A stretch of 12,894 nt of DNA, taken from assembly GCA_039208735.1 (NCBI GenBank), contig JBCCQY010000213.1, positions 1 to 12,894 of the forward strand, read 5' to 3'. Below, piece after piece: positions 1 through 12,894 of the stretch. This DNA is from Myxococcota bacterium (lineage in GTDB: Bacteria; Myxococcota_A; UBA796; GCA-2862545). The notes below the pieces were generated by a model. It was not told where the DNA came from. It searched no databases and saw only the letters and a program-made list of their open reading frames with translations. The position numbers and the translations under genes were made by a program. Within the stretch, counting starts at the first letter, position 1. Each line of letters starts with the position of its first letter.

Positions 1-447
1 ACCGAAGCCACGGGCAAACGACGGTGGACGAGCGACGACTTGCTCGCCAGGGTCGAAGCCGAAGATCTCATGAAGTTTGGGCTCATTCCCGAGTTCATTG
101 GGCGGGTGCCCGTGGTGGCCACCCTCAACCAGCTCGATGAAGACGCGCTCGTGAAGATCCTCACCGAGCCGAAGAACGCGCTAACGAAGCAGTACCAAAA
201 ACTCTTCGAGATGGACGGCGTGCAGCTCAAGTTCACCGACGGCAGCCTTCGGCTGATCGCCCGAGAGGCGCTGAAACGCAAGGCTGGCGCGCGAGGGTTG
301 CGAGGCATCCTCGAAGAGATCATGCTGGATGCCATGTACGACCTTCCAAGCAAGTCGAACGTGCGGGAATGCATCATCAGCGAAGAGGTCGTCGAGGGCA
401 ATCAGCCCGCCATTCTGGTGTACGAGAACGAAGCGGGCTGGGCCTGA
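1..447 (+). CDS. clpX: ATP-dependent Clp protease ATP-binding subunit ClpX, 5'-truncated by the window edge
   Basis: Frame 1 is open from base 1 ([23 protein letters not shown]...). It has the ClpX C-terminal motifs [35 protein letters not shown] and [10 protein letters not shown], and lies directly upstream of lon. Confidence 0.96.
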
Positions 448-468
448 CCTGGCGAGAGAGGACGATGC

Positions 469-2907
469 ATGGCCTTGTTCGGTGAGTCTGGACCGGAGGG
501 CGGGTCGGGCCGCCGCACGTGGCCGATGCTGCCCCTCCGAGAAGTGGTGGTCTTTCCTCACTCTCCGATGTCTCTTATCATCGGTCGCCCGAAGTCCCTT
601 GCGGCGGTCGAGCGAGCCGTCGCCTCCTCGAGTGGCGAGGTGTTCCTCGTGGCCCAACGGGCCGGCGACAACATCGACCCAACGACGAACGACGTCTTTT
701 CGTTTGGGACGATCGCGACCATTGACCAGGTCTTGAAGCTGCCCGATGGCAACACCAAAATCCTGGTGGAGGGGCAGCGGCGGGCCCGGGTGGTGCGGTT
801 CGTCGATGATTCGCGGATGTTCGAGGTCGAACTCGAGGCCTACCCTGAGCCCAGCTCGGTCTCGGTCGAGGTGCAAGCCCTGGTTCGCACGGTGAAGACG
901 ACCTTCGAACGGTATGTGAAGCTCAACCGAGCCGTCCCTCCCGAGATGCTGTTGGCGGTCAATGCGTTGGAAGACCCATCGCGACTCGCTGACACCCTCG
1001 TGACGCCGCTGCAGTTCAAGCTCGAAGAGCGCCAGGAATTGCTCGAGACCATCGACACCGGCAAGCGGCTCGAACGCATCTACAAGGCCCTGCTGGCCGA
1101 GATCGAGTTTCTGCAGGTGGAGAAGAAGCTCAAAACGCGGGTCAAGCGGGAGCGCGAAAACAACAGCCAGCGAGAATACTGGCTCAATGAGCAGATGAAG
1201 GCGATCCAAAAGGAGCTGGGCGACAAGGAAGGCCGCTCGGACCTCGAGGAACTCGCCCAAGCGATCGCGGGCAAGAGCCTGCCCGAGCACGTCCAGGTCC
1301 GCGCTGAGAAAGAACTGCGCAAGCTGTCGCAGATGAACATGATGAGCGCCGAAGCCACGGTCGTCAGGAACTACCTGGACTGGATTGTGGCCTTGCCGTG
1401 GACCGAAGCGAGCGACGAAGTAGCGTCGCTCCGCAAGGCCGCCGAAGTGCTCGACTCCGACCACTTCGGCCTGCGCAAGATCAAGGAACGCATCCTCGAA
1501 TACCTGGCCGTCGCCACCTTGGTTGAGAAGATGCGAGGCCCCATTCTCTGTCTTGTGGGCCCGCCCGGGGTGGGGAAGACGAGCCTCGCGCGGTCGATCG
1601 CCAATGCGACCCAGCGACCGTTCGTGAAGATCTCGCTTGGGGGCGTGCGCGACGAGGCAGAGATTCGGGGGCATCGCCGCACCTACATCGGCGCCATGCC
1701 TGGCAAAATCCTGCACGCAATGAAGCGAGCCGAAACCGTCGATCCCATTGTTCTGCTCGATGAGATCGACAAGATGAGCGCCGACTTTCGGGGCGACCCC
1801 TCGGCGGCGTTGCTCGAGGTGCTCGATCCCGAGCAAAACCACCAGTTCCAGGACCACTACCTGGACCTCGACTACGACCTGTCGAAGATCACCTTCATCT
1901 GCACGGCGAACTCCCTCCAGGGGATTCCGCTACCCCTCCAGGACCGCCTCGAAGTGATTGAGCTGACGGGCTACACCGAGGTCGAGAAGGTCGCGATCGC
2001 CAGGCGATACCTTCTTCCTCGACAGATGGAACTCAACGGGCTCACCGACGAAAACCTGTTGATGTCCAACAAGGCCCTGCTCCAGACGATCCGCCACTAC
2101 ACCAAGGAATCGGGCGTTCGAAACCTCGAGCGCCAGGTCGCAAGCGTGTGCCGCAAGGTGGCGCGACGGGTGGTGAGCCACGGCAACCAGACCCGTGTGA
2201 AGGTCGTGACCGCCAACCTCGCGAAGTTGTTGGGCCCGCCAAAGTTCCTCGTCGGGCAACGGGAAAAGGAAGACCAGATTGGGCTGGTGAAGGGCCTCGC
2301 GGTGAGCCCGTGGGGCGGTGAGCTGCTCAACATCGAGGTGACCACCCTTTCGGGCAAGGGCAAGCTGCTGTTGACGGGCCGACTCGGCGATTGGCTGAAG
2401 GAGTCCGGCAACGCCGCTTTCACCTACCTGCGGTCCCGAGCCGAAGCGCTTGGACTCGACCCCGATTTCCACGAGAAGACCGACCTGCACATCCACTACC
2501 CCGGCAATGCGCTGCGCACGGATGGTCCTTCGGCGGGCATCGCCATGGCCACCGCGATGGTGAGCGCTGTGACCGGCATTCCGGTGCGCGCCGACACGGC
2601 CATGACCGGCGAGATCACCTTGCGGGGCCGGGTGCTGCCCATCGGAGGTCTCAAGGAGAAGGTGCTTGCGGCGCACCGGGGCGGCATCACGCGGGTGCTC
2701 GTGCCGGCCGAGAACCTCAAGGATCTGGAAGACATCCCCAAGGCCATCCAAGCCGTCGTCGACATCATCGGCGTTTCGCACATGGACCGCGTGCTCAAAG
2801 AGTCGCTGACCGGCAATCAGGCCGAAGAGCTGTTCAGCCAGTCGAGCGGTACCTCAGCCGAAGAGCCTACCGAATGGACAACCAGCGGTGGCATGGGTCG
2901 CGGCTAG
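469..2907 (+). CDS. lon: ATP-dependent protease La (LonA), 812 aa
   Basis: Lon N domain (LPLREVVVFP), Walker A GPPGVGKTS, RGHRRTYIGAMPG, Walker B LLDEIDK, catalytic Ser in DGPSAG and catalytic Lys in PIGGLKEK. A purine-rich RBS (GAGAGGA) lies upstream. Confidence 0.98.
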   Translation: MALFGESGPEGGSGRRTWPMLPLREVVVFPHSPMSLIIGRPKSLAAVERAVASSSGEVFLVAQRAGDNIDPTTNDVFSFGTIATIDQVLKLPDGNTKILVEGQRRARVVRFVDDSRMFEVELEAYPEPSSVSVEVQALVRTVKTTFERYVKLNRAVPPEMLLAVNALEDPSRLADTLVTPLQFKLEERQELLETIDTGKRLERIYKALLAEIEFLQVEKKLKTRVKRERENNSQREYWLNEQMKAIQKELGDKEGRSDLEELAQAIAGKSLPEHVQVRAEKELRKLSQMNMMSAEATVVRNYLDWIVALPWTEASDEVASLRKAAEVLDSDHFGLRKIKERILEYLAVATLVEKMRGPILCLVGPPGVGKTSLARSIANATQRPFVKISLGGVRDEAEIRGHRRTYIGAMPGKILHAMKRAETVDPIVLLDEIDKMSADFRGDPSAALLEVLDPEQNHQFQDHYLDLDYDLSKITFICTANSLQGIPLPLQDRLEVIELTGYTEVEKVAIARRYLLPRQMELNGLTDENLLMSNKALLQTIRHYTKESGVRNLERQVASVCRKVARRVVSHGNQTRVKVVTANLAKLLGPPKFLVGQREKEDQIGLVKGLAVSPWGGELLNIEVTTLSGKGKLLLTGRLGDWLKESGNAAFTYLRSRAEALGLDPDFHEKTDLHIHYPGNALRTDGPSAGIAMATAMVSAVTGIPVRADTAMTGEITLRGRVLPIGGLKEKVLAAHRGGITRVLVPAENLKDLEDIPKAIQAVVDIIGVSHMDRVLKESLTGNQAEELFSQSSGTSAEEPTEWTTSGGMGRG

Positions 2908-3728
2908 CCATCGAGCCCGCGGGTGGCGATGAACTTCGAACGCCCGCGCTCGCCAAGCCGAACAAAGAACGGCTCGACCCGATGAATGAGCCACGGGAAC
3001 GAGCCCACGAGGCGGGTCAAGATCGAATCGGAGTAGGGCAGGTAGGTCTCGAGGGCCCCGCTGGACAGGGCGCGCATGCAGGCATCGCCGACCTGATCCG
3101 CGGTGAGCACTTCACCCACAAAATTGAGGGGAGAGCCTCCCGGATGCATAGCTTCAAGCCGGAGCATTGGTGTGTCGACGCCACTCGGGAACACCCCCAT
3201 GACCCGAACCCCATCCTTCAGCAGCTCGGCATGAATCGCTTGCTGAAAGCCACGCAAGCCAAACTTAGCCGCCGAGTACGAGGCGCTGCCCCGTAAGGAG
3301 AGGATGCCTCCCATGCTGACGATCGACAGGATGTCGCCGCCGCCTCGTTCACGCATGAACCTCGCCACTACTCGCGTGAGCTGCATCGGAGCCACCAGGT
3401 TGATCTGAACGTGGCGGTCGATGGCCTCCGCATCGAGCTGCACGACATTGCCGGGCAAGATGTAGCCCGCATTGTTCACAAGCAAGCTCAGATCTGCGTA
3501 GTCGCGTTCGATGCGTTCACCCAACGCCGCAATGCCCTGTGCCGTCGAGAGGTCCGCGTGCAGAACCGCGCAGGGCTGTCGAAGGGACTGCGCCACCTGC
3601 TCCGCGCGCGCCACGTCGATGTCAGCGAGGACGAGTTGGTAGCCTCGCTTGTCGAGCCGTTCTGCTATCGACGCCGCAATGGCGCCCCCGCCTCCGGTGA
3701 TGAGCGCCTTCCGGCCAAGCTTGTCCAT
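2904..3728 (-). CDS. Short-chain dehydrogenase/reductase (SDR family oxidoreductase)
   Basis: ALITGGGGAIA Rossmann motif, LVLADID, LLVNNAG, catalytic Ser (IVSMGG), YSAAK (YxxxK) and PSGVDT. ATG at 3728 is preferred over TTG at 3743 because GGAGGA lies just upstream of it. Confidence 0.93.
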   Translation of the reverse strand: MDKLGRKALITGGGGAIAASIAERLDKRGYQLVLADIDVARAEQVAQSLRQPCAVLHADLSTAQGIAALGERIERDYADLSLLVNNAGYILPGNVVQLDAEAIDRHVQINLVAPMQLTRVVARFMRERGGGDILSIVSMGGILSLRGSASYSAAKFGLRGFQQAIHAELLKDGVRVMGVFPSGVDTPMLRLEAMHPGGSPLNFVGEVLTADQVGDACMRALSSGALETYLPYSDSILTRLVGSFPWLIHRVEPFFVRLGERGRSKFIATRGLDG

Positions 3729-3745
3729 TCGTCCTCCATCCAAAA

Positions 3746-3783
3746 ATGAGCAACCCTCACATAATAACCTGAGGGTTTCTCAT
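3746..3783. promoter_or_regulatory. Inverted repeat made of two TGAG-N5-CTCA (T-N11-A) boxes; probable transcription-factor operator for the SDR gene
   Basis: ATGAGCAACCCTCA (3746-3759) and TGAGGGTTTCTCAT (3770-3783) are a 13/14 inverted match. Each arm is itself a dyad, and they are separated by an AT-rich 10-nt spacer. Confidence 0.6.
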
Positions 3784-3820
3784 GTTAGGTGGCACAGAGT
3801 GAGGTGGTGTCGAATCGTGC

Positions 3821-3849
3821 TTGACACGCCCCAGCCCAACCCATAGAGG
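3821..3849 (+). promoter_or_regulatory. Probable sigma70 promoter of the tRNA operon
   Basis: Perfect -35 TTGACA (3821-3826), 17-nt spacer and a weak -10 TAGAGG (3844-3849), about 22 nt upstream of tRNA-Val. Confidence 0.55.
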
Positions 3850-3871
3850 TGTGGAGTCGGTAGGCTCCCGC

Positions 3872-3943
3872 GGGCGGATAGCTCAATGGGAGAGCATCGG
3901 CTTTACACGCCGAGGGTTGCAGGTTCAAATCCTGTTCCGCCTA
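3872..3943 (+). tRNA. tRNA-Val (anticodon TAC), CCA not encoded
   Basis: Acceptor GGGCGGA/TCCGCCT, D-arm GCTC..GAGC, anticodon stem TCGGC/GCCGA with TAC at 3904-3906, T-loop GGTTCAAATCC, discriminator A3943. Confidence 0.96.
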
Positions 3944-3955
3944 CTCACCACTCAC

Positions 3956-4032
<77 letters not shown>

Positions 4033-4040
4033 CTTCATAC

Positions 4041-4077
4041 GAACCCGCTTGGTAATCGCCAAGCGGGTTTCGTCGTT
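4041..4077 (+). terminator. Probable intrinsic terminator after the tRNA pair
   Basis: 12-bp stem GAACCCGCTTGG (4041-4052) / CCAAGCGGGTTT (4059-4070) with a 6-nt loop, followed by an imperfect T-tract. Confidence 0.75.
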
Positions 4078-4092
4078 CAGGAGGTCTTGTCC

Positions 4093-4458
4093 ATGTGGTT
4101 TCTGGCTCTCGTGCCGCTCGCCCTTGGCGGCAAGCAACCCAGCAAGCGCCCGACCGACGAGGAACGTGGGAAGGAGCTCTACGAGCGGCACTGCCACGCC
4201 TGTCACGGGGCCGGGGCTCGCGGCGATGGTCCGGCCACCAAGGCACTACGAGAGGCTGTTCCGGTGGCTCGGAACTTTAAAATCGACGCATCGAAGATCG
4301 ACTTGGTGATGCAGGGCCGAAATCTGATGCCCGCGTTCGGCAACACCTTCGATCGCAACGACGCCAAGCGCGTCCTACGTCACATGGTTCGACTGCCTGA
4401 CGTGGCGACCGAGCCCCCCGAAGCCGAGAAGCCGGCCCCCGAGGCCGAAGCACCGTAG
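4093..4458 (+). CDS. Monoheme c-type cytochrome (class I), exported
   Basis: GKELYERH-CHACH-G heme-attachment motif, likely distal Met in LMPAFG, N-terminal hydrophobic leader and Pro/Glu/Ala-rich tail. Strong RBS AGGAGGT (4079-4085) precedes ATG 4093. Confidence 0.9.
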   Translation: MWFLALVPLALGGKQPSKRPTDEERGKELYERHCHACHGAGARGDGPATKALREAVPVARNFKIDASKIDLVMQGRNLMPAFGNTFDRNDAKRVLRHMVRLPDVATEPPEAEKPAPEAEAP

Positions 4459-4461
4459 CGG

Positions 4462-4917
4462 CTACTTCGCCGCGGTGTAGCGCACCGGGAAATCGAACGC
4501 GAAGCCATCGATGAGGCCGTGGGCAGGAAACCGAGCGCCTGCGAGCGAGGCCCGCGTGCAGCTCACCACATGGTCTGGCCAGTCACCGGCCTCGACCACT
4601 TCAACCCCCGACAACGAACCCGAGCAATCGACGGTCAGCTGCAGCCGTAGCGTTTCTTGAGGCGCATCCGCGGAGGGGGCCAGACACGGCATAAATCGCG
4701 GCGTAGCGGCCCGGAGGCGCTCTCGCAGTGCCTCGGGTGAGGGGCCCTCGGCCGGAAGCGTCATGTCGCAGGCCAGCAGGCCCACATCGAGTTGGGCGAG
4801 CCCAGATGAGGCCCAGGCCTCATCCGACGCTGATGCTGGTACGCGCGACAACGCGATCGTCACGCTGCCGAGGGTTGCTGCGAGGCCGATTCCGACCACC
4901 TGACCCACCGTCCGCAT
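4462..4917 (-). CDS. Exported or membrane-anchored protein with an AgmX/PglI C-terminal-like (TonB C-terminal-like) domain
   Basis: N-terminal hydrophobic segment. The pattern 'FMPCL...LRLQLTVDCSGSLSGVEV...VVSCTRASLAGARFP...FAFDFPVRY' resembles myxobacterial AgmX/PglI/TonB-C-like domains. Recognised by eye only. Confidence 0.6.
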   Translation of the reverse strand: MRTVGQVVGIGLAATLGSVTIALSRVPASASDEAWASSGLAQLDVGLLACDMTLPAEGPSPEALRERLRAATPRFMPCLAPSADAPQETLRLQLTVDCSGSLSGVEVVEAGDWPDHVVSCTRASLAGARFPAHGLIDGFAFDFPVRYTAAK

Positions 4918-5107
4918 TTCGCCTCCGCCAAGACCCTATGGGACCGAACGAAACCTTGCCAACTTTCGATCGAACGCAGGCTCGTTCGTCCGATCCCCAA
5001 GGAACGCTCCGAGATGCCGACTTGTACCGTTGTGCGGTCCCTCCCGTGGCCTAGCGGTGGGGAAACCCTTAGACAGGGCTGGCCACAGCGGCAGGGCGGA
5101 GGCGGTG

Positions 5108-5911
5108 ATGGCGTCGGAAGGCAGCGCACTCGGGGCGTTCGTGTTGGGAGTGATCCAAGGACTCACGGAGTTCTTGCCGGTCTCGTCGTCAGGCCACCTC
5201 GTGCTGTTTCAGCAGTTCATCCCCGTGGCCGGTGATGCGCTGCTCTTCGACCTCGTGCTGCATGTGGGCACGCTTGTGCCGGTGCTCTACTTCTACCGGG
5301 ACTGGGTCGGAAAGCTGATCCTGGACCCCTTCGTCGGTGAGGGGCCCTTCCTCGAACGCGAAGGGGTCCGGTGGATCGGCTACATCGTGCTCGCATCCAT
5401 CCCTACCGCGATCATCGGCATCGCATTCAAGGATCAGTTCGATGCGCTGTTCTCGACACCAGCGACGCTGGCCGTCACCTTCACCATCACCGCCCTGTTG
5501 CTGCTTCTGACGTCACGACTCGATCGCAGCTACCTCGACAAACCGCTCTCGCCCGGCGTGGTCTTGTTGCTGGGCATCGCCCAGGGCCTCGCCATCACCC
5601 CCGGCATCAGCCGGAGCGGTACCACCATCGCGGTGGCCCTCCTGCTGGGGCTGGGGCGTGAGAAAGCGGCTCGTTTCTCATTTCTCATGAGCGTACCCGC
5701 GATCGTAGGCGGGCTCTTGCTCGAGCTTCGGGACGCCGAGCTAGGCGATGTCGACCCCGTGCAGCTGGCGGTTGGCGGCGGAGCCAGTCTGGTCACGGGC
5801 TACCTGGCTCTCGTCCTGCTCGTTCAGGTGGTGCGCCAAGGCCGCATGGCATGGTTCGCGGGCTACCTCTTCCTCGTCGCGGGCTTCTCGCTCTACCGCG
5901 CCATGGCGTAG
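5108..5911 (+). CDS. uppP: Undecaprenyl-diphosphatase UppP (BacA)
   Basis: Signature motifs GVIQGLTEFLPVSSSGHL and QGLAITPGISRSGTT, plus AARFSFLMSVP, in a multi-TM protein. RBS GGAGG (5098-5102) supports ATG 5108 rather than 5030. Confidence 0.96.
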   Translation: MASEGSALGAFVLGVIQGLTEFLPVSSSGHLVLFQQFIPVAGDALLFDLVLHVGTLVPVLYFYRDWVGKLILDPFVGEGPFLEREGVRWIGYIVLASIPTAIIGIAFKDQFDALFSTPATLAVTFTITALLLLLTSRLDRSYLDKPLSPGVVLLLGIAQGLAITPGISRSGTTIAVALLLGLGREKAARFSFLMSVPAIVGGLLLELRDAELGDVDPVQLAVGGGASLVTGYLALVLLVQVVRQGRMAWFAGYLFLVAGFSLYRAMA

Positions 5912-5928
5912 CGCCGAAGGCCAGCGGT

Positions 5929-6021
5929 TCGCGCAAGCTTCGCTTGCTGCTGATCAGACTCGCGCAAGCTTTGCTTGCTGCTGTTCTGATTTCGCGCAAG
6001 CTTCGCTTGCTGCTGATCAGA
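5929..6021. repeat. Three tandem 30-32-bp REP-like hairpin repeats
   Basis: Copies at 5929-5959, 5960-5991 and 5992-6021, consensus TCGCGCAAGCTTCGCTTGCTGCTGATCAGA. Copies 1 and 3 are identical over 30 nt and copy 2 has 3 substitutions. Each contains GCAAGC-N3-GCTTGC. Confidence 0.9.
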
Positions 6022-7207
6022 AGTAAGTCCGAACGGAAAGGAATCCGGCTGGCGGGTAGGTTCCAAACTCGCTCTGGAAGATGGTGTCGGACATGAAGTC
6101 CGGTTGAGCGCCCACCCCCGCGTACAGGCCAGCGGCCAGCGTCGCATTGTTGGCAACAGACCAGCTCAGCCCGGCTGAAACAAGCATCGAAGGGTCGCCC
6201 AGGTTGCCGACCAGAGCCACGTTCGCGTTGATGAGCGAGGTGACTTCCTGGTTCACGGCCAGGCTCGCGTAGGTCCGCCCGACCTGCCACACCTCCCCCC
6301 TCGCGAATCGAGGTCCGAGAAAGATGGCGAGGTACTCGCCCGGATCGTTGCTGCCAAAGCCTTGGTAGTAGGCCTCGGCGGTGAGCGTTGTCGTCGGCGT
6401 CGGTCGCCAATCGGCCCCCACCACCGCCCGAACGAAGGGATCCTCCTCAAGCGCCCCCTCTGGCGGCAGCGTGAGCGTGACGTCGCCATGAATGCCCACC
6501 GGACCGATCGCCGAGACGAATCCTGCGCCAAAGACCGGCTCACCCCGGACCGAGGCCACAAGCCCAATGAGGTCGGTCACCCCCACGGTCGTGCTGGCGT
6601 TAAGGGCGAGAATCGTGTTGTCGACGAAGGGGATGGGTTCATCGCCATGGATGAAGGGCCCAGCCCACGCCGCAACCCCCGTGATTCGACCCGCGGTCCC
6701 GATGTAGCCGTCGATTCGTAGTGCATCGACGCCCGGCTTGTACTCGGTATCGATGACGGCGGCCGAAAACGGGTTGACGATGTCCATTGGCGTGAACACC
6801 AGGCCCGATCCGAAGGTGACGGGCTGGCGGCCGAGGGTCACGTCCAGTCCTGACCGGCTGTACTTCACGCTGAGCCGGTCGGTGCGGCCCCGAATGGTCA
6901 GTCCCGGCCCGGCGTCGGCTTCCCAGGTCAGATCCACGAACTCGGGCGCTTGAAGGCCTACTCCTGACGCCGTTCCTGCTAATCCCACGCCGGGTGGCAC
7001 GTTAAACGTGGTCACCGCGTGATGGGCGAGAAAGTCCCAGTGCTTCCCTGCCGATGCCTCGGCCTTGAGTCGGAAGTCAGCAATGCCCTGACCGGTGTTG
7101 TCGAGTCCTGAAGGAAAACTCGCCACAAAGAAGGTCTTGATGTCGCCGTGCAACGACGCATCGCCGGCGTGAGCGAGCGCGCCCAGCCACCACCCCATGC
7201 CGATCAC
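6017..7207 (-). CDS. Probable outer-membrane beta-barrel protein associated with the ABC/LolA-like operon
   Basis: Short leader ending ALAHA, many alternating amphipathic beta-strands, 'LDVTLGRQPVTFGSG..FTPMDIVNPF' and 'KPGVDALRI' segments, and a C-terminal ...LSVRTYF (BAM-type terminal Phe). The GTG start overlaps the ATPase stop. Confidence 0.7.
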   Translation of the reverse strand: MIGMGWWLGALAHAGDASLHGDIKTFFVASFPSGLDNTGQGIADFRLKAEASAGKHWDFLAHHAVTTFNVPPGVGLAGTASGVGLQAPEFVDLTWEADAGPGLTIRGRTDRLSVKYSRSGLDVTLGRQPVTFGSGLVFTPMDIVNPFSAAVIDTEYKPGVDALRIDGYIGTAGRITGVAAWAGPFIHGDEPIPFVDNTILALNASTTVGVTDLIGLVASVRGEPVFGAGFVSAIGPVGIHGDVTLTLPPEGALEEDPFVRAVVGADWRPTPTTTLTAEAYYQGFGSNDPGEYLAIFLGPRFARGEVWQVGRTYASLAVNQEVTSLINANVALVGNLGDPSMLVSAGLSWSVANNATLAAGLYAGVGAQPDFMSDTIFQSEFGTYPPAGFLSVRTYF

Positions 7208-7947
7208 TTTCGTAGATCCTCTTTGATCATGCCGTCTTCGAGGCGCACCACGCGGCGTGCGGCGTCCATGACCTTCGGGTCGTGCGTCGCGAACACGAAC
7301 GTGATGCCGAACTCTTGGTTGAGTTGCTTCATCAACGCAATGAGGTCGTCGCCCGTCTTCGAGTCGAGGTTCGCGGTAGGTTCATCCGCAAGTACCAACG
7401 CGGGCTTCCCTGCGATGGCTCGGGCCACCGCGACGCGCTGTTGCTGTCCCCCTGACAACTCGCTCGGACGCCGATGCTCCATGCCCGTAAGCCCCACCGA
7501 GGCCAGCGTCTCCAGGACAATCTTGCGGCGCTCCGCGGCCCCCACGCCCCGCAACATCAACACGAATTCAGCATTCTCGAGGGCTGAGAGCACGGGAATG
7601 AGGTTGTAGCTCTGAAAGATGAATCCCAGACGCCGAAGCCGCAGGTCCGACAGCTGAGCCGAGGTCAGCCGCGTCAGGTCCTGATCTTCGATGAGGACTT
7701 TGCCGCTCGTGGGCGTGTCGAGCGCGCCAATCTGGTTCAGCAGGGTGGTCTTGCCCGAACCCGACGGCCCCATGAGGGCTGTGAATTCGCCAGGGGCAAT
7801 CTCGAGATCGACCCCCCTTAGCGCTTTCACGGTGATGGTACCTTGCTGGTATTCGCGTTTAAGGTCCCGCACCGTGACGATGGGGGTCGCCGCATCGGTC
7901 CGCGCGGAGGCGGACGAGAGTCCTTCGGTCTCCATGGAACGCTCCAT
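7204..7947 (-). CDS. ABC transporter ATP-binding protein, LolD/MacB-like
   Basis: Walker A GPSGSGKT, Q-loop GFIFQSYNL, signature LSGGQQQRVAVARA, Walker B LVLADEPTANLD, H-loop ATHD. The exact start is uncertain (7947 or 7935). Confidence 0.95.
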   Translation of the reverse strand: MERSMETEGLSSASARTDAATPIVTVRDLKREYQQGTITVKALRGVDLEIAPGEFTALMGPSGSGKTTLLNQIGALDTPTSGKVLIEDQDLTRLTSAQLSDLRLRRLGFIFQSYNLIPVLSALENAEFVLMLRGVGAAERRKIVLETLASVGLTGMEHRRPSELSGGQQQRVAVARAIAGKPALVLADEPTANLDSKTGDDLIALMKQLNQEFGITFVFATHDPKVMDAARRVVRLEDGMIKEDLRK

Positions 7948-9192
7948 CTAGACGTGCCGCATTGCGGCGACGGGTTTGAGCCCAGCGACATGCCAGGCGG
8001 GATAGGCGGCAGCAAGCGTCGTCAGGACGATGGCTCCGACGGTGTACACGGCCATCCGCCCAAACGCGTACTTGCCCTGCAAGACAGCCGACAACACCAC
8101 GCCACCGGTGTCGATCGCATCTTGGCCAAGCATCGAGGAATAGTCGATGCCGTAGGCCACCAGCGGCCAGCTCACCGCCAGGCCCGCAAGAAAGCCAAGC
8201 AAGCTTCCCAACACCCCGAGGATGAAGCCCTCCGCCAAAATGAGGTTCGACAACCGACCTGGCTTCATGCCGACGGCCATCATGACGCCGAACTCCCGCG
8301 TTCGTTCCAGCGCGCTCATCAACACCGTGTTGAGCACGCCCAGCGTCACGATGAGCCCAAGGATGGTGAGCATCACGTCGCCACTTTGACGGTCGACCTG
8401 AATGAGCCCGTAGATCTCGGGCAATGCCTCACGCCATGACAGCACCGCGAGGTCCGACCGCGCGGACAGTGCAGCGGCGGTTTGGTCGGTCGCCTCAAAG
8501 GCTTGGGTGGGATCCGCGAGGTGGACCGTGACCTGGTGAGCGACGTCTTCGGCACCCAACAACTCGCGCCCCGCCGACAGGTGGCCCATCGTGACCAGGC
8601 CGTCCATCTCGGCCGCCCCGGTCCGAAAGATCCCCTTGATTCGGAACAAGCGACTGGCCATCTCATCGCTGGTGCCGAACTGCCCCATGAATACGACTTT
8701 GTCCCCGATTCCCACGTCGAGAGATTGAGCCATTTTGGCGCCAATAAGGATTCCGCGGTCGTCCTCGTCGAGCCACGTGCCCTCCACGATGCGATCATCG
8801 AGGGTTTGAACCGCAGCTTCGGCAAGGGGGTCGACCCCCGAGAATGCAGCGGCCACGGAGTTCGTGGGGCTGGTCACTAGTCCGCCCAGCTGAATCCGCG
8901 GGGCAATCGTGGCGTCAGGAAACGCCTGTGCGAGCTGATCGGCGATGCCATCCGCGCGGCCCACCAGCAGCTCGGAGTCCCGCTCTTCCTGGTAGCCCTC
9001 GTGCTGAATGACGACATGGCCCGCAAGCGTGCTGACTCCCTGACGAATCATGTCGTCGTATTGGCCGCTCTGCAGCGTGATGGTGAGGTGGATCATGGCC
9101 AAGCCAAACGTGATGGCGGCCAGCGTGATCAAGGTTCGGCGGAGGTTCCGTCCGAGATTTCGGAAGGCGAGCATCAACGTGTTCATGTTCAC
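7948..9192 (-). CDS. ABC transporter permease, FtsX/MacB/LolCE type
   Basis: LAFRNLGRNLRRTLITL start, one TM, a large periplasmic domain, GVLNTVLMSALERTREFGVMMAVG and a C-terminal AAYPAW..LKPV. Confidence 0.93.
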   Translation of the reverse strand: MNMNTLMLAFRNLGRNLRRTLITLAAITFGLAMIHLTITLQSGQYDDMIRQGVSTLAGHVVIQHEGYQEERDSELLVGRADGIADQLAQAFPDATIAPRIQLGGLVTSPTNSVAAAFSGVDPLAEAAVQTLDDRIVEGTWLDEDDRGILIGAKMAQSLDVGIGDKVVFMGQFGTSDEMASRLFRIKGIFRTGAAEMDGLVTMGHLSAGRELLGAEDVAHQVTVHLADPTQAFEATDQTAAALSARSDLAVLSWREALPEIYGLIQVDRQSGDVMLTILGLIVTLGVLNTVLMSALERTREFGVMMAVGMKPGRLSNLILAEGFILGVLGSLLGFLAGLAVSWPLVAYGIDYSSMLGQDAIDTGGVVLSAVLQGKYAFGRMAVYTVGAIVLTTLAAAYPAWHVAGLKPVAAMRHV

Positions 9193-10418
9193 TCCGACCG
9201 AATGGCTTCGACGGGTTTCAGGTTTGCAGCCCGAATCGCCGGGTAGAGCGACGCAAGCACGCTCACCAGCAGCACCGCAACCAAGATCTGGACGATCGAC
9301 TCCACCTTGACGACGCCCTTGATGACGGGGTCGATGGTCACACCCGAGAAGCTAAATCCGTCCTCGGCGGCGGCCGACATGTCGAATCCCACCGTCACGA
9401 CGTAGTAGTCGAGCACGGCCCCCAACCCGAGTCCCATGGCCGACGCGACCACGGCCAGGAACAAGCTTTCAATGACGATGAGGGCGACGAGACGACCCGC
9501 CCGAATGCCGAGGGCGCGCAACACGCCCAGCTCTCGGGTCCGTTCGAACACCGACATCATCATCGTGTTGAGCACCCCAAAGGCCGCCGCGCCAAACACG
9601 ATGCCCAAGATGATGAACACCGCCACATCGCGACTTCCCATGAGCTGAGCCGTCTGAGGACTCGCGATCCACCAAGGTTGAATCTCAACATCTTCCCGAT
9701 CAACGATCGCTTCGATGCCGGTCACGTAGGGCTCAATGGCCTCCGCATCCTTCGTCAGCGCCGTAATCTGGTGGATTTGGTCATGTAACACCAGCAGTTC
9801 TTGGAGATCGCCGAGCGTGAGGTAGGCCCCGTTCCGGTCCATCTGGGTGTTGCCGGACCGGTAGGTGCCCACCACGTTCAAGACCGCGTTCCCGAGCGAC
9901 CCATCGGCGGCTTGGGTCACCACCACGACGCCATCTCCGAGGCCCACGTCCAGTTCCTCGGCCAGCTTCTCGCCAAGCGCAATCTCGCCGGGCCCCTCGA
10001 TGAACCGCCCCGCCTTGGTGCGCTCATCCAGTGGAAAGGTCTGCAACAGGCGCTCGGGCACGACCCCAACCAGCATCGCGCCGGCGGATTTGTCTTCGCC
10101 ACCGACGAGGGCAAAGCCGTTGAGGCGCCCACTCACTGCGGCGGTGCTCTCGAGGCCATCGAGCTGTTCGACCAGGGCCGCCGCGTCGGGGACCGTGTCG
10201 TGGAGCACCCGGCCTGCAGGGTACTCGGGATGATGGATTTGGACGTGGCCCAGTTGTTGTTCGACCATCACCTCGAAGAGGTTCTCGAAGGTGCCGTCCT
10301 GAAACGCCACCATGGCCATGCACAGCGCAACCCCAACGGCCATGGCGCCGGCGGTGATGAGCGAGCGGCGGGTGTGGCGCCAGAGGTTGCGCCACGCCAC
10401 CGAAATGAGCAGCATCAT
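9189..10418 (-). CDS. ABC transporter permease, FtsX/MacB/LolCE type
   Basis: VAWRNLWRHTRRSLIT, GVLNTMMMSVFERTRELGVLRALG and SLYPAIRAANLKPVEAIR. Same topology as the adjacent permease. Confidence 0.93.
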   Translation of the reverse strand: MMLLISVAWRNLWRHTRRSLITAGAMAVGVALCMAMVAFQDGTFENLFEVMVEQQLGHVQIHHPEYPAGRVLHDTVPDAAALVEQLDGLESTAAVSGRLNGFALVGGEDKSAGAMLVGVVPERLLQTFPLDERTKAGRFIEGPGEIALGEKLAEELDVGLGDGVVVVTQAADGSLGNAVLNVVGTYRSGNTQMDRNGAYLTLGDLQELLVLHDQIHQITALTKDAEAIEPYVTGIEAIVDREDVEIQPWWIASPQTAQLMGSRDVAVFIILGIVFGAAAFGVLNTMMMSVFERTRELGVLRALGIRAGRLVALIVIESLFLAVVASAMGLGLGAVLDYYVVTVGFDMSAAAEDGFSFSGVTIDPVIKGVVKVESIVQILVAVLLVSVLASLYPAIRAANLKPVEAIRSE

Positions 10419-10420
10419 GA

Positions 10421-11137
10421 CTACTTCTTCAGCGCCTGCAGCGTGAACAAGCGGTCATCGAGGTCGGCCGCCAAATCGAGTTCCGAGTACCGCATTTCCG
10501 TGAATTCCCCTGGCTTGTCATGAGGAACGAGGCGGAACCGCATCGGCGCGAGCTTTCCATCGACCGTCTGGACGTCCGAAAACTCCATCGAACGCACCAA
10601 CTCCCCGCGCTCATCGAAGTAATCGACCTTGACCGGGACCTGGTCAGCGCGCACCGTCACCACCACCTTGCCCCACACGACCGGCGCGTCCGGCTTCGGC
10701 ACACAGGCGATGACGTAGTTGCCTTTGCCGTCTTGGGGCTTCGACACGAACTCGTAGGTGAAGTCCTCCGAGAGTCGGGATTCGCGCACCAAATCATCGT
10801 TGGTGAAATGCGACCCCATCCAAGCGCCGCTCATCATCCCCGCCGGCACCTTCATCGTCCGGTCTACTTTGGGCAGGTAATTCCAGAGGTTTTCGTCGAC
10901 CTTGAGGGTGGCCACCCCCGCATCCTTGGCCGGCTCGAGAATTCGGATCAGCGACTTCTCCGTTCCCTTGCTGAACACCTGCATTTTCATGGAGCGCTCG
11001 TAGCGCGAGGTCTTGACTTGCATCTCGATCGTGGCTTGGCTCGAGTCGCCGCGCGACACATCGTCGGTGGCCCGAAGCAACTCCTCGATCGTAGGGTCCG
11101 CCGCGAAGGCGCCCAACGCGTACAGCAACACCATCAT
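10421..11137 (-). CDS. Periplasmic LolA-like 'outer membrane lipoprotein-sorting protein' (TP0789-like family)
   Basis: Leader ending AFA, then EKSLIRILEPAKDAGVATL, LWNYLPKVDRTMKV, WMGSHFTNDDL, KVDYFDERGELVR and FTLQAL, which are typical of this family. Confidence 0.85.
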   Translation of the reverse strand: MMVLLYALGAFAADPTIEELLRATDDVSRGDSSQATIEMQVKTSRYERSMKMQVFSKGTEKSLIRILEPAKDAGVATLKVDENLWNYLPKVDRTMKVPAGMMSGAWMGSHFTNDDLVRESRLSEDFTYEFVSKPQDGKGNYVIACVPKPDAPVVWGKVVVTVRADQVPVKVDYFDERGELVRSMEFSDVQTVDGKLAPMRFRLVPHDKPGEFTEMRYSELDLAADLDDRLFTLQALKK

Positions 11138-11604
11138 CTTTCCTCCGAAGTTGCGTACCGGTCGATCACCGGCAGGATTTCTCGCTCAAGGTAAAGAACG
11201 AAGTCGCGCAACTTCTCGATTCGGTCCCGGCGAGCTGGTGGATCGTCAGCCATGAGGGTGAGGCCCTGATCGGCGACCCCCACGAAGATGCGCAAGAAAG
11301 TCAGGTAGCGACGTGCAATGTCAGGCCAAGGATGGTCCTGCACGGCCACGTAGGTGGCGCGACTGTTGGGCACCGCAACCTTGTCGAGGATGCCCGACCG
11401 CAACAACTGACGAATCGCCGTGCTGACGGCGCCCCGAGACGCATCGAGCGTCTCTGCGATCTGTTGTGCCGTCTGATGTGGCGGGTCAGAGATGAGCAAC
11501 AGCCCCAACACGCGCCCGGCCATCCGGGTTTCCCCCATTTCATCGGCGATGAGACCGACCTCCTCGACGAAGTGGGACTCCCGAATGGCACGGTCGCTCG
11601 TCAT
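11134..11604 (-). CDS. GbsR/MarR-family winged-helix transcriptional regulator
   Basis: G.TRMAGRVLGLLLISDPPHQTAQQIAETLDASRGAVSTAIRQL wHTH followed by VPNSRATY. ATG 11604 has GGGAG 8 nt upstream, whereas ATG 11628 sits inside the palindrome. Confidence 0.88.
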   Translation of the reverse strand: MTSDRAIRESHFVEEVGLIADEMGETRMAGRVLGLLLISDPPHQTAQQIAETLDASRGAVSTAIRQLLRSGILDKVAVPNSRATYVAVQDHPWPDIARRYLTFLRIFVGVADQGLTLMADDPPARRDRIEKLRDFVLYLEREILPVIDRYATSEER

Positions 11605-11617
11605 GCAGTCGACTCCC

Positions 11618-11637
11618 AGTTCAGTCATGACTGAACT
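11618..11637. promoter_or_regulatory. Perfect 20-bp palindrome, probable operator of the GbsR/MarR regulator
   Basis: AGTTCAGTCA|TGACTGAACT, located just upstream of the regulator's RBS. Confidence 0.75.
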
Positions 11638-11642
11638 TTCGA

Positions 11643-11670
11643 AATTTAGCTAATGGATCCGATGGAGCAA
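11643..11670 (-). promoter_or_regulatory. Candidate sigma70 promoter for the regulator-ABC operon
   Basis: Minus strand TTGCTC (11670-11665), 16-nt spacer, TAAATT (11648-11643). The predicted start site near 11636 falls in the palindrome. Confidence 0.45.
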
Positions 11671-11737
11671 GGCAAGCGACACACCAGTGTCGATTCCCCC
11701 GGGCCGACATTCCTGGTAGGATTCCCGGCCTGGAGCA

Positions 11738-12568
11738 GTGGAAGTCATGGGTGTTTTGGTCGGCGTCGACCTTCCGGCGGGAGGTCATGAATGGCTCGTG
11801 AGTCGTGCGGGGGACTACGCGCGGCGAATGAGCACCCAGGTCGACATGGTCTACTTTGTAGGCGACGATGCCGACCCGCCGGCGCACGTACCTGCGCTCC
11901 AGGCCTACCTCGACACCTTGCCCAAGGGCGTTCGGGGAACGCCTCGGGTGGCCGTTCAGGCGCCGGCTGATGGTCTGGTCGAGCTGTCGTCCGACTACGA
12001 TTTGTTGGTGCTCGGGTCTCGCGAGCCACCGGCCCTGGAGCGGCTCCTCAAGGGGGCGATGGCAGGAAAGGTGTTGCGCCGTTCCCACTGTCCCGTCCTC
12101 GTGCCGCACTCGGTGGGTGAACAACCCGAAGTGATGCGGCTCATCGTGGGCGTCGACGTCACGAGCCCGGACCCCGACCGCGTGCTTTCCATGGGCGCCG
12201 AGTGGGCGGGCCGGGTCGGCGGTAAGCTTGACGGCCTCTACGTTGAGGTGGGCCGCCTGCCCCACATCGCGGACCGGTCGGTGCGTGAGGCGGCCGAGCG
12301 AGAATGGGTGGCGCTACGCCAACCCCAACTCGACCGGCTCAAGGCCCTGATGCACGCGGCCATCCCCGAGGCTCAGCGGGGCGAAGCACTGCTGCGACGG
12401 GGCGAACCGGAAGACGTCCTCGTCCAGCTTTCGGCCGACTACGACGTCGTGTTGGTCGGCAATCGCAACCGGGAGGGGATCGCCCGCCTCGTGCTCGGCG
12501 CAGTGGCGACCGCCGTGGCGCGCCGGTCCGGATGCGACGTCATCAGTCTGCCCACCGCCGATACGTAG
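11738..12568 (+). CDS. Universal stress protein with two tandem USP domains
   Basis: VLVGVD...YDLLVLGSR...LLKGAMAGKVLRRSHCPVLV and LIVGVD...YDVVLVGNR...LVLGAVATAVARRSGCDVI. Start is GTG 11738 or ATG 11747. Confidence 0.92.
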   Translation: MEVMGVLVGVDLPAGGHEWLVSRAGDYARRMSTQVDMVYFVGDDADPPAHVPALQAYLDTLPKGVRGTPRVAVQAPADGLVELSSDYDLLVLGSREPPALERLLKGAMAGKVLRRSHCPVLVPHSVGEQPEVMRLIVGVDVTSPDPDRVLSMGAEWAGRVGGKLDGLYVEVGRLPHIADRSVREAAEREWVALRQPQLDRLKALMHAAIPEAQRGEALLRRGEPEDVLVQLSADYDVVLVGNRNREGIARLVLGAVATAVARRSGCDVISLPTADT

Positions 12569-12569
12569 G

Positions 12570-12765
12570 GCTGGCGGCAGCTCGATTAAAGCGTGTGGAC
12601 AGTTTGCCGCCACACCCTCCTTCTCGGAGGCAACCCCAGTGCAAACACTGGAGATTCCTGCTTCGACAGGGCCCGTTAGCTCGTCGTGGCCGTAGCGGTG
12701 ACGAACCAGAGCGAGGCCCCTCCACAGGCATGTTTCACGACCCCGAGGGCTTCTCGGAGGTCGGA
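12570..12765 (-). ncRNA. Putative TnpB omegaRNA (reRNA) scaffold plus guide; boundaries approximate
   Basis: Minus strand order: stem CGACC(T)CCGAG-AAGCC-CTCGGGGTCG overlapping the tnpB end, AAACATGCCTGTGGAGG, a long stem, TCGAAGCAGGAAT (CCTGT pairs with GCAGG), then hairpin CTCCAGTG-TTTG-CACTGGGG. This layout matches TnpB reRNAs as recalled. Confidence 0.7.
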
Positions 12766-12894
12766 AGCGGGAGCCCCGGGTACTGGCCGAGGTTGCTCGC
12801 AGCGTTGGTGTCGCGGTCCGCTTCGAAGCCGCAACGGCAGCAGTGGAAGGTGCGCTGGCCCAGCGGGACCCGGTCGCCGACGTGGCCGCAGGCG
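12586..12894 (-). mobile_element. Right end of an IS200/IS605- or IS607-superfamily element (or a standalone tnpB)
   Basis: tnpB 3' end plus subterminal hairpins. The boundary lies somewhere in 12586-12633. The left end and any tnpA are outside the window. Confidence 0.7.
12735..12893 (-). CDS. tnpB: TnpB-family RNA-guided endonuclease, C-terminal 52 aa (5' part outside the window; not in the ORF track)
   Basis: Manual translation gives ACGHVGDRVPLGQRTFHCCRCGFEADRDTNAASNLGQYPGLPLPTSEKPSGS*. It contains the zinc-ribbon (C)xxCG...F.CxxCG and the RuvC-III motif DRDxNAAxN. Confidence 0.92.
   Translation of the reverse strand, partial: ACGHVGDRVPLGQRTFHCCRCGFEADRDTNAASNLGQYPGLPLPTSEKPSGS

Follow-up and report, generated by a model that had tools for sequence, protein, structure and literature searches.

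A truncated tnpB gene probably marks the right end of an IS427-type IS5 element with its terminal repeat inside a predicted omegaRNA

A myxococcotal contig breaks off inside what looks like a tnpB gene, which raises the question of what kind of mobile element the gene belongs to and how a nuclease encoded there might be guided without cutting its own copy. The stretch analysed (the window, 12,894 nt) is the entire contig C213 of a 9.4-Mb, 64% GC assembly (G000). On its minus strand, 159 nt including the stop codon (12893-12735) encode 52 residues containing CGH, CCRC and DRDTNAASN. The first-pass annotation had seen a zinc ribbon and the RuvC-III aspartate here, a reading confirmed by the translation and by a match to the Pfam model Cas12f1-like_TNB (33.4 bits, cut-off 26.3): positions 12735..12893 are the 3' end of tnpB, cut by the contig end, with the zinc ribbon and Asp417 among residues 390-441 of 441. 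The reading frame is incomplete in the window because the assembly broke within a repeat.

A second copy, on contig C263 (locus L001), is the same as the window copy at 305 of 308 nt, and the identity ends exactly at 12587. There tnpB is complete (L001:5381-6703, 441 aa); its product scores 178.8 bits against the NCBIfam guided_TnpB model NF040570 (cut-off 100) and contains PF12323, PF01385 and PF07282 (HTH, RuvC and zinc ribbon), the domains of a TnpB. Its catalytic triad D245/E334/D417 is intact; the window itself holds D417 alone, the middle of its copy being unassembled and its intactness borrowed from C263. The RuvC-I Asp and RuvC-II Glu had been singled out for checking, and both, like the third residue, are also invariant in 61 of 61 aligned TnpB relatives. 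With RuvC-I, II and III intact in the sister copy and the relatives, a compact programmable nuclease is the likely reading of this protein. The domesticated TldR that had been offered as its alternative, with an inactivated RuvC and an immobile single copy, fits neither the intact triad nor a multi-copy element of which two near-identical copies have different flanks.

The setting is also not that of an IS200/IS605 or IS607 element, as had been assumed. Directly upstream of tnpB in C263 lies an IS5-family DDE transposase gene whose stop overlaps the tnpB start and whose product scores 216 bits against NF033580 (cut-off 110), with further matches to PF01609, PF13340 and PF13586. This IS5-type transposase, together with terminal inverted repeats (TIRs) and a target duplication, places the element in the IS5 family. 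IS200/IS605 (Y1 HUH TnpA, no TIR, no duplication) was rejected on the upstream DDE gene, the TIR and the TA duplication. IS607 (serine recombinase TnpA, GG ends, no TIR) was rejected on the TIR, on resolvases lying elsewhere and on a sub-threshold profile score: the best model for the C263 TnpB is IS607_TnpB, at 213.6 bits under its cut-off of 350. This score and the nearest plasmid matches outside the clade, which are IS607-type, fit the ancestry of the TnpB. No Y1 transposase (PF01797) match was found in G000, a genome 92.7% complete, and its two resolvase matches are both on contigs other than the element's.

Within the IS5 family, the transposase carries a GRSRGG motif, which we take to be a marker of the IS427 group. 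The IS427-type label that we provisionally use rests on this motif, on the 2-bp (TA) duplication, on TIRs of 13-17 bp and on transposase frames that are split in L028, L031, L032, L040 and L046 and a single ORF elsewhere; the transposase groups with 0.82-0.87-kb TA-duplicating plasmid elements, none of which carries an IS427 label. The text of PMC3281130 gives the group a 2-bp duplication, 12-21-bp inverted repeats and, in many members, overlapping ORFs with a frameshift. In the subfamily of the window and C263 copies (L001:6697-7347 and the end of contig C94), the transposase has Cys at the conserved Trp of its relatives' RRFRRW.

The element reads, in order, TA, left TIR, DDE transposase, tnpB, structured tail, right TIR and TA. 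In the window the 17-bp right TIR lies at 12589..12605 and is identical to a left TIR at C94:35612-35628; the TA duplication follows at 12587..12588, where the identity with C263 stops. Matches to the TIR core number 17 in G000, and 12 of these have TA at the expected offset, against a TA frequency of 1.2%. Positions 12586-12570, which had been counted as scaffold, are instead host flank beyond the TA; judging from TnpB biology and from flanks that vary between copies, the host right flank at 12567..12586 (minus strand) is the predicted guide of this copy, which may start up to 2 nt further in, within the TA. Outside the element stands a host universal stress protein gene, usp (11738..12568, plus strand; Pfam Usp), which serves as a synteny marker. 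In three of five genomes searched (G001, G003 and, at the protein level, G004), usp is the neighbour of the gene terminating at the C94 junction, and the element is absent between the two. This makes it very likely that the window's copy has its left side on C94; the loci fetched for G002 and G016 did not show the synteny. The copy thus very likely sits in the TAA stop codon of that gene, and its length is estimated, from the two contigs, at 2304 bp.

At the C94 end the TA is missing because an IS1111-type element of 1.43 kb has inserted in the left TIR; the flank beyond reads CTA, and with this insertion the window copy is probably immobile. We take mobility of the element in the recent past as shown. 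In a source-like sequencing run, depth was 21.4 for the contig that matches the tail exactly and 8.6 for the flank, a contrast in keeping with a collapsed repeat, depth being no copy number. The contigs of the sequencing runs contained no empty-site joint, and for 9 of 9 own right flanks in G000 a 12-nt guide match preceded by TA was found nowhere else in the genome. No sigma-70 promoter match was found within the element.

Beyond the last codons of tnpB, the DNA had been described as heavily base-paired, and folding bears this out: 12765-12586 has a z-score of -4.07, with none of 200 shuffles as good, and 12780-12570 one of -3.09. Rfam gave no relevant family and one chance match outside the feature. 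We place the predicted omegaRNA scaffold at 12589..12765 (minus strand), where it overlaps the last tnpB codons and includes the right TIR. An alignment of 23 tails shows both partners changing in 28 of the 39 pairs, and 95.7% of its cells are paired, a share that falls to 37-48% once the partners are shifted; the structure itself came from this alignment, so the agreement is biased in its favour. In 5' to 3' order, the fold comprises stem-loop 1 (12739..12761); a central three-helix domain (12657..12728; 13 of 15 pairs compensatory in helices 3, 4 and 6) with the two motifs quoted earlier, at about 12729-12720 and 12664-12654; a hairpin of variable length (12634..12653), seen in fold and alignment; hairpin H4 with a conserved GAGAA loop (12616..12630; 5 of 5 pairs covary); and hairpin H5 (12593..12615; covariation in 3 of 6 pairs), in which the right TIR core supplies the 3' arm. 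The variable hairpin had been called terminal-type; it is internal, the element ending 45 nt further on, at the TIR (12605-12589). The broader proposal, that a TnpB gene overlaps at its 3' end with an omegaRNA-like scaffold, is supported.

The loop of stem-loop 1, AAGC (12752-12749), complements the four bases that close the TIR on the minus strand (12592-12589), and the two are the predicted 5' and 3' strands of a pseudoknot. Four pairs form in 31 of 40 rows and three in 9 of 40, in a search that was targeted at an already-seen motif; two of the four pairs are invariant, and 9 of 23 rows lack the fourth. L052 has one compensatory change and L162 has two; whichever of the three tnpB reading frames the loop falls in, it persists (42, 10 and 1 of 53). 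A structured 3' scaffold with a pseudoknot, as in other TnpBs, is thus predicted, the pseudoknot with weaker support than the stems. A second candidate, between the AAA linker and the tail, showed no covariation on inspection by eye and was dropped. The predicted topology matches that of ISDra2 (PMC10097598, PMC10711439), in which, as the text of PMC10097598 has it, bases -6 to -2 pair with the stem-1 loop; ApmFz2 is described with G-C pairs at -3 and -2 and a scaffold that ends at 0 (text of PMC11832414), and for Fanzors the target duplication is counted as scaffold (text of PMC10711439). These precedents allow three guide starts, and the TA may therefore be scaffold or guide.

Is the pairing of tnpB with an IS5 gene an accident of this genome? 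A co-oriented IS5 gene is present at 31 of 33 loci (at least 41% identity, enough upstream DNA) versus 0 of 13 distant viral TnpBs, and both ends, with TA on each side and TIRs of 13-17 bp, were found at 16 loci, a few duplicates among them. L013 and L018 appear to represent a single contig, and L013 cannot be counted independently of G001. At one of the 16 loci, L054, tnpB stands alone between the element ends. The proteins themselves record the ends: 35 of 120 homologs terminate in T-V-[NDHS]-T-L, the translated TIR with TA(A/G) as stop. In a TnpB tree from a quick search (midpoint root, one row skipped), 25 IS5-linked TnpBs fall on one side of a branch with an SH-aLRT of 99 and 10 others on the opposite side. 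That an IS200/IS605 or IS607 tnpB element landed in or beside an ordinary IS5 element by chance, or that we are looking at a domesticated TldR, would suit the IS607-type affinities of the protein given above; we regard it as very improbable, since 31 of 33 relatives, with identities as low as 41%, have the same layout, both sides carry TIR and TA, the fold covaries with the TIR, G000 yielded no Y1 gene and two resolvases on other contigs, and the triad is intact.

The clade extends beyond this layout. In actinobacterial-type relatives the right end is kept, and the transposase, where present, has the opposite orientation and is 28-29% identical (L061, L062, L071). A plasmid of the cultured Miltoncostaea oceani (L162:881-3219) bears a 2.34-kb IS5 element with a tnpB of the same clade, a different TIR and a third type of IS5 transposase, co-oriented with tnpB. 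The transposases of the actinobacterial-type group and of L162 are presumably IS1031-like, as we label them. A third TnpB subfamily (L059, L076, L079, L080, L082, L089, L093) shares the final four bases of the end, after which come T-rich bases that vary, in place of a fixed TA; its left ends were looked for and not found. Other IS5-TnpB subfamilies, at least three in number, occur in G000 alongside several deleted remnants (on C137, C100, C60, C239, C27, C72, C91, C271, C98 and C93); C137 has a second full tnpB and transposase. Scans with single proteins gave one locus in genome contigs and none in metagenome contigs, and an alignment-based scan succeeded. Phylum-wide, with G000 counted and few candidates scored per genome, the TnpB occurs in at least 2 of 401 genomes and the transposase in at least 3 of 301; a transposase scan of viral contigs gave none.

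The two ends of these elements differ at one position. Among 58 calls made with the last base left free, right ends of TnpB-carrying elements finish in T (40), G (17) or C (1), the single C being a mis-call; no end could be called at 15 listed loci, and loci lacking sufficient downstream DNA were left out. All nine right ends in G000 have T. Since the left TIR begins with G in 13 of 16 complete elements, a perfect repeat needs C, and a non-C right end is a departure from it. TnpB-less relatives, in contrast, finish in C in 17 of 17 credible cases (18 less L174, with a TIR score of 6/15; two are copies of one element), and their G...C ends make the right junction read CTA. The flanks differ as well: left flanks read VCTA in 28 of 28 cases versus 36 of 47 for mirrored right flanks (Fisher p 0.005, for a pattern chosen after the data were seen), compared with 9 of 17 and 13 of 17 in the TnpB-less controls, and actinobacterial left flanks are VCTA in 5 of 6 and CTA in 6 of 6.

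A right junction with C would present the TAM next to a perfect guide match, so that a TAM containing the C of CTA, with an altered end that prevents self-cutting, would be the simplest reading. Other causes could contribute. Pseudoknot or transposase bias could explain part of the end asymmetry, constraints on the RNA or the transposase alone could give a non-C last base, and the flank asymmetry could be an orientation bias of the transposase. In a rival account the element is an IS5-TnpB with a flank guide as before, but its TAM would not depend on the C; the pseudoknot and transposase preference would produce the non-C base and the VCTA bias, and self-cutting would be otherwise avoided or tolerated. 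We think this unlikely. In its favour, a terminal T pairs with the loop's A, which alone favours T, and the sequences belong to one TnpB clade, so that the counts represent few independent events for a pattern defined post hoc. Against it, the 17 right ends with G break the loop pair and yet still avoid C; in L162, which differs in both transposase and TIR, the right end is likewise a G facing a left G; and the controls show no left/right asymmetry.

The reading we prefer, with a probability of about 0.68, is that the window contains the right end of a 2.3-kb IS427-type IS5 DDE element carrying tnpB, whose predicted omegaRNA likely guides the cutting of empty sites. A transcript would cross the right TIR and extend into the flank; the loop of stem-loop 1 would pair with the last four TIR bases as a pseudoknot, and the scaffold would end 0-2 nt from the TIR end, leaving about 16 nt of flank as the guide. 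The transposase would insert at YTAR sites, and TnpB would take its TAM from the left flank, as (V)CTA or at minimum the C within it. The empty allele, in which the TAM is joined to the right flank, would then be cut and repaired from the filled copy, and the element would be kept or spread. The filled right junction would show TTA or GTA, not CTA, before the guide-matching flank and be spared, because, we infer, the last base of the TIR moved away from C. The same conditional standing applies to expression, the flank guide, the TAM, empty-allele cutting with repair and self-avoidance.

TnpB might instead bind its RNA and serve chiefly as a passenger or to regulate the element, for instance by occluding the ends or restraining transposition. 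The inclusion of the TIR in the scaffold would suit this, as would replicative movement, which leaves no gap to restore: IS1248, a member of the IS427 group, forms co-integrates according to the text of PMC3281130. A point against the preferred reading, argued in section 6.2 of PMC13565253, is that the benefit of TnpB is less clear for DDE elements than for IS605, because DDE excision already leaves a break. A catalytic triad invariant in 61 of 61 relatives and flanks as variable as expected of a re-programmed guide speak against a regulator or passenger, which we consider improbable.

How new is such an element? The text of Altae-Tran et al. 2023 (PMC10691335) associates the TnpB branches DDE-1 to DDE-6 with DDE transposases and inverted repeats, and that of a 2026 review names ISL2, IS630 and IS1031 as partners (PMC13565253). 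Like those branches as described there, the element here has tnpB between inverted repeats with a DDE transposase, a 3' end at most 250 bp from the element end and solo-TnpB derivatives with the same ends (here L054). Unlike them, its partner is co-oriented and IS427-type, a group unnamed in the texts of the two papers, figures and additional files aside, and those texts give no TIR pseudoknot, end asymmetry or TAM prediction. The actinobacterial sister group, with a transposase that is presumably IS1031-like by its motifs, may be one of DDE-1 to DDE-6. In the literature on TnpB with IS5, IS427, IS1031 or self-targeting, mostly judged from listings and with most subscription journals outside its coverage, we found no IS427-type TnpB carrier and no end asymmetry, and the literature searched held no biochemical test of an IS5-borne TnpB. 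The class of DDE-borne TnpBs is thus already known; the additions are the IS427-type partner, the TIR pseudoknot and the prediction of one-base self-avoidance.

With the TnpBs of IS607 and IS200/IS605 (ISXfa1, ISDra2) the element shares domain order, the D-E-D triad, the C4 zinc ribbon, a scaffold overlapping the gene end and, as predicted, a pseudoknot that joins the stem 1 loop to the bases before the guide; it differs in having no Y1 or serine TnpA and in symmetric TIRs with a TA duplication, as opposed to hairpin or GG ends. The TnpB-less IS427 group (e.g. ISPko5-like L170) has transposases 44-50% identical, the TA duplication, 12-17-bp TIRs and, in some, a two-frame form (text of PMC3281130), but its elements measure about 0.85 kb, versus 2.2-2.45 kb for those with TnpB, and end G...C with both junctions CTAG, whereas the TnpB form does not end in C. 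Fanzor2* and Fanzor1 of eukaryotic TIR transposons, as the text of PMC10711439 describes them, resemble the element as predicted here in building the TIR, and perhaps the duplication, into the scaffold and in a 5' duplication that is part of the TAM. Unlike Fanzors, the element is bacterial and has the canonical RuvC-II Glu, and by prediction it retains the pseudoknot, in which it resembles Fanzor2* and differs from Fanzor1.

The family therefore appears to offer a complete, active-looking example, with exact ends and a covarying scaffold, and it makes sharp predictions: a short TAM with the C of CTA, a guide start at most 2 nt from the TIR end, and self-cutting on a one-base change. It opens to experiment the question of how an OMEGA nuclease can live with TIRs and duplications, a step that Fanzors took in eukaryotes, and M. 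oceani provides a cultured carrier of the wider clade. A 441-aa putative nuclease with a short predicted TAM could be of use. A wider proposal, to which we give slightly less than even odds, is that one TnpB clade has remained stable in IS5 elements across Myxococcota-like and actinobacterial hosts through at least two changes of transposase. Each time, the right TIR would have been re-fitted to the pseudoknot in its last bases and to a non-C terminal base, so that a filled site without a CTA TAM gives one-base discrimination of self from non-self, a bacterial parallel to Fanzors settling in TIR transposons; two IS1111-type RNA-guided elements in G000 would, in turn, target that TIR and scaffold.

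The first of these two is complete at G000:C94:34180-35611 (L144), where it interrupts the window copy's left TIR after two bases, and has an IS110-family transposase (PF01548, PF02371), subterminal repeats and a long 3' non-coding region; the IS1111 features used for comparison are from the text of PMC11187229. A second copy starts at C132:25844 after the same CTAAA context, and the element therefore probably targets this TIR, much as IS4321 and IS5075 target the TIRs of Tn21. The second is a multi-copy element (C137, C32, C146 and C112; also C22, C54 and C191) with 16-bp subterminal repeats and TTGACA inside one end, putatively IS1111-type by its end layout. Four of its seven junctions lie in the GAGAA loop of H4 in IS5-TnpB right ends of at least two subfamilies, so that the H4 loop is its insertion site in four other copies in G000. 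Its transposase was not found in G000, where it is unassembled, and the four IS110-family matches there are other elements.

The rest of the window (1-12568) carries ordinary host genes, including usp, an SDR, a cytochrome c and an ABC/LolA-like exporter operon that includes a MarR regulator. The ORFs at 6017-7207 and 4462-4917 have no Pfam match. The same stretch contains what we take to be a clpX tail, lon and a uppP-like gene, together with tRNA-Val and tRNA-Asp.
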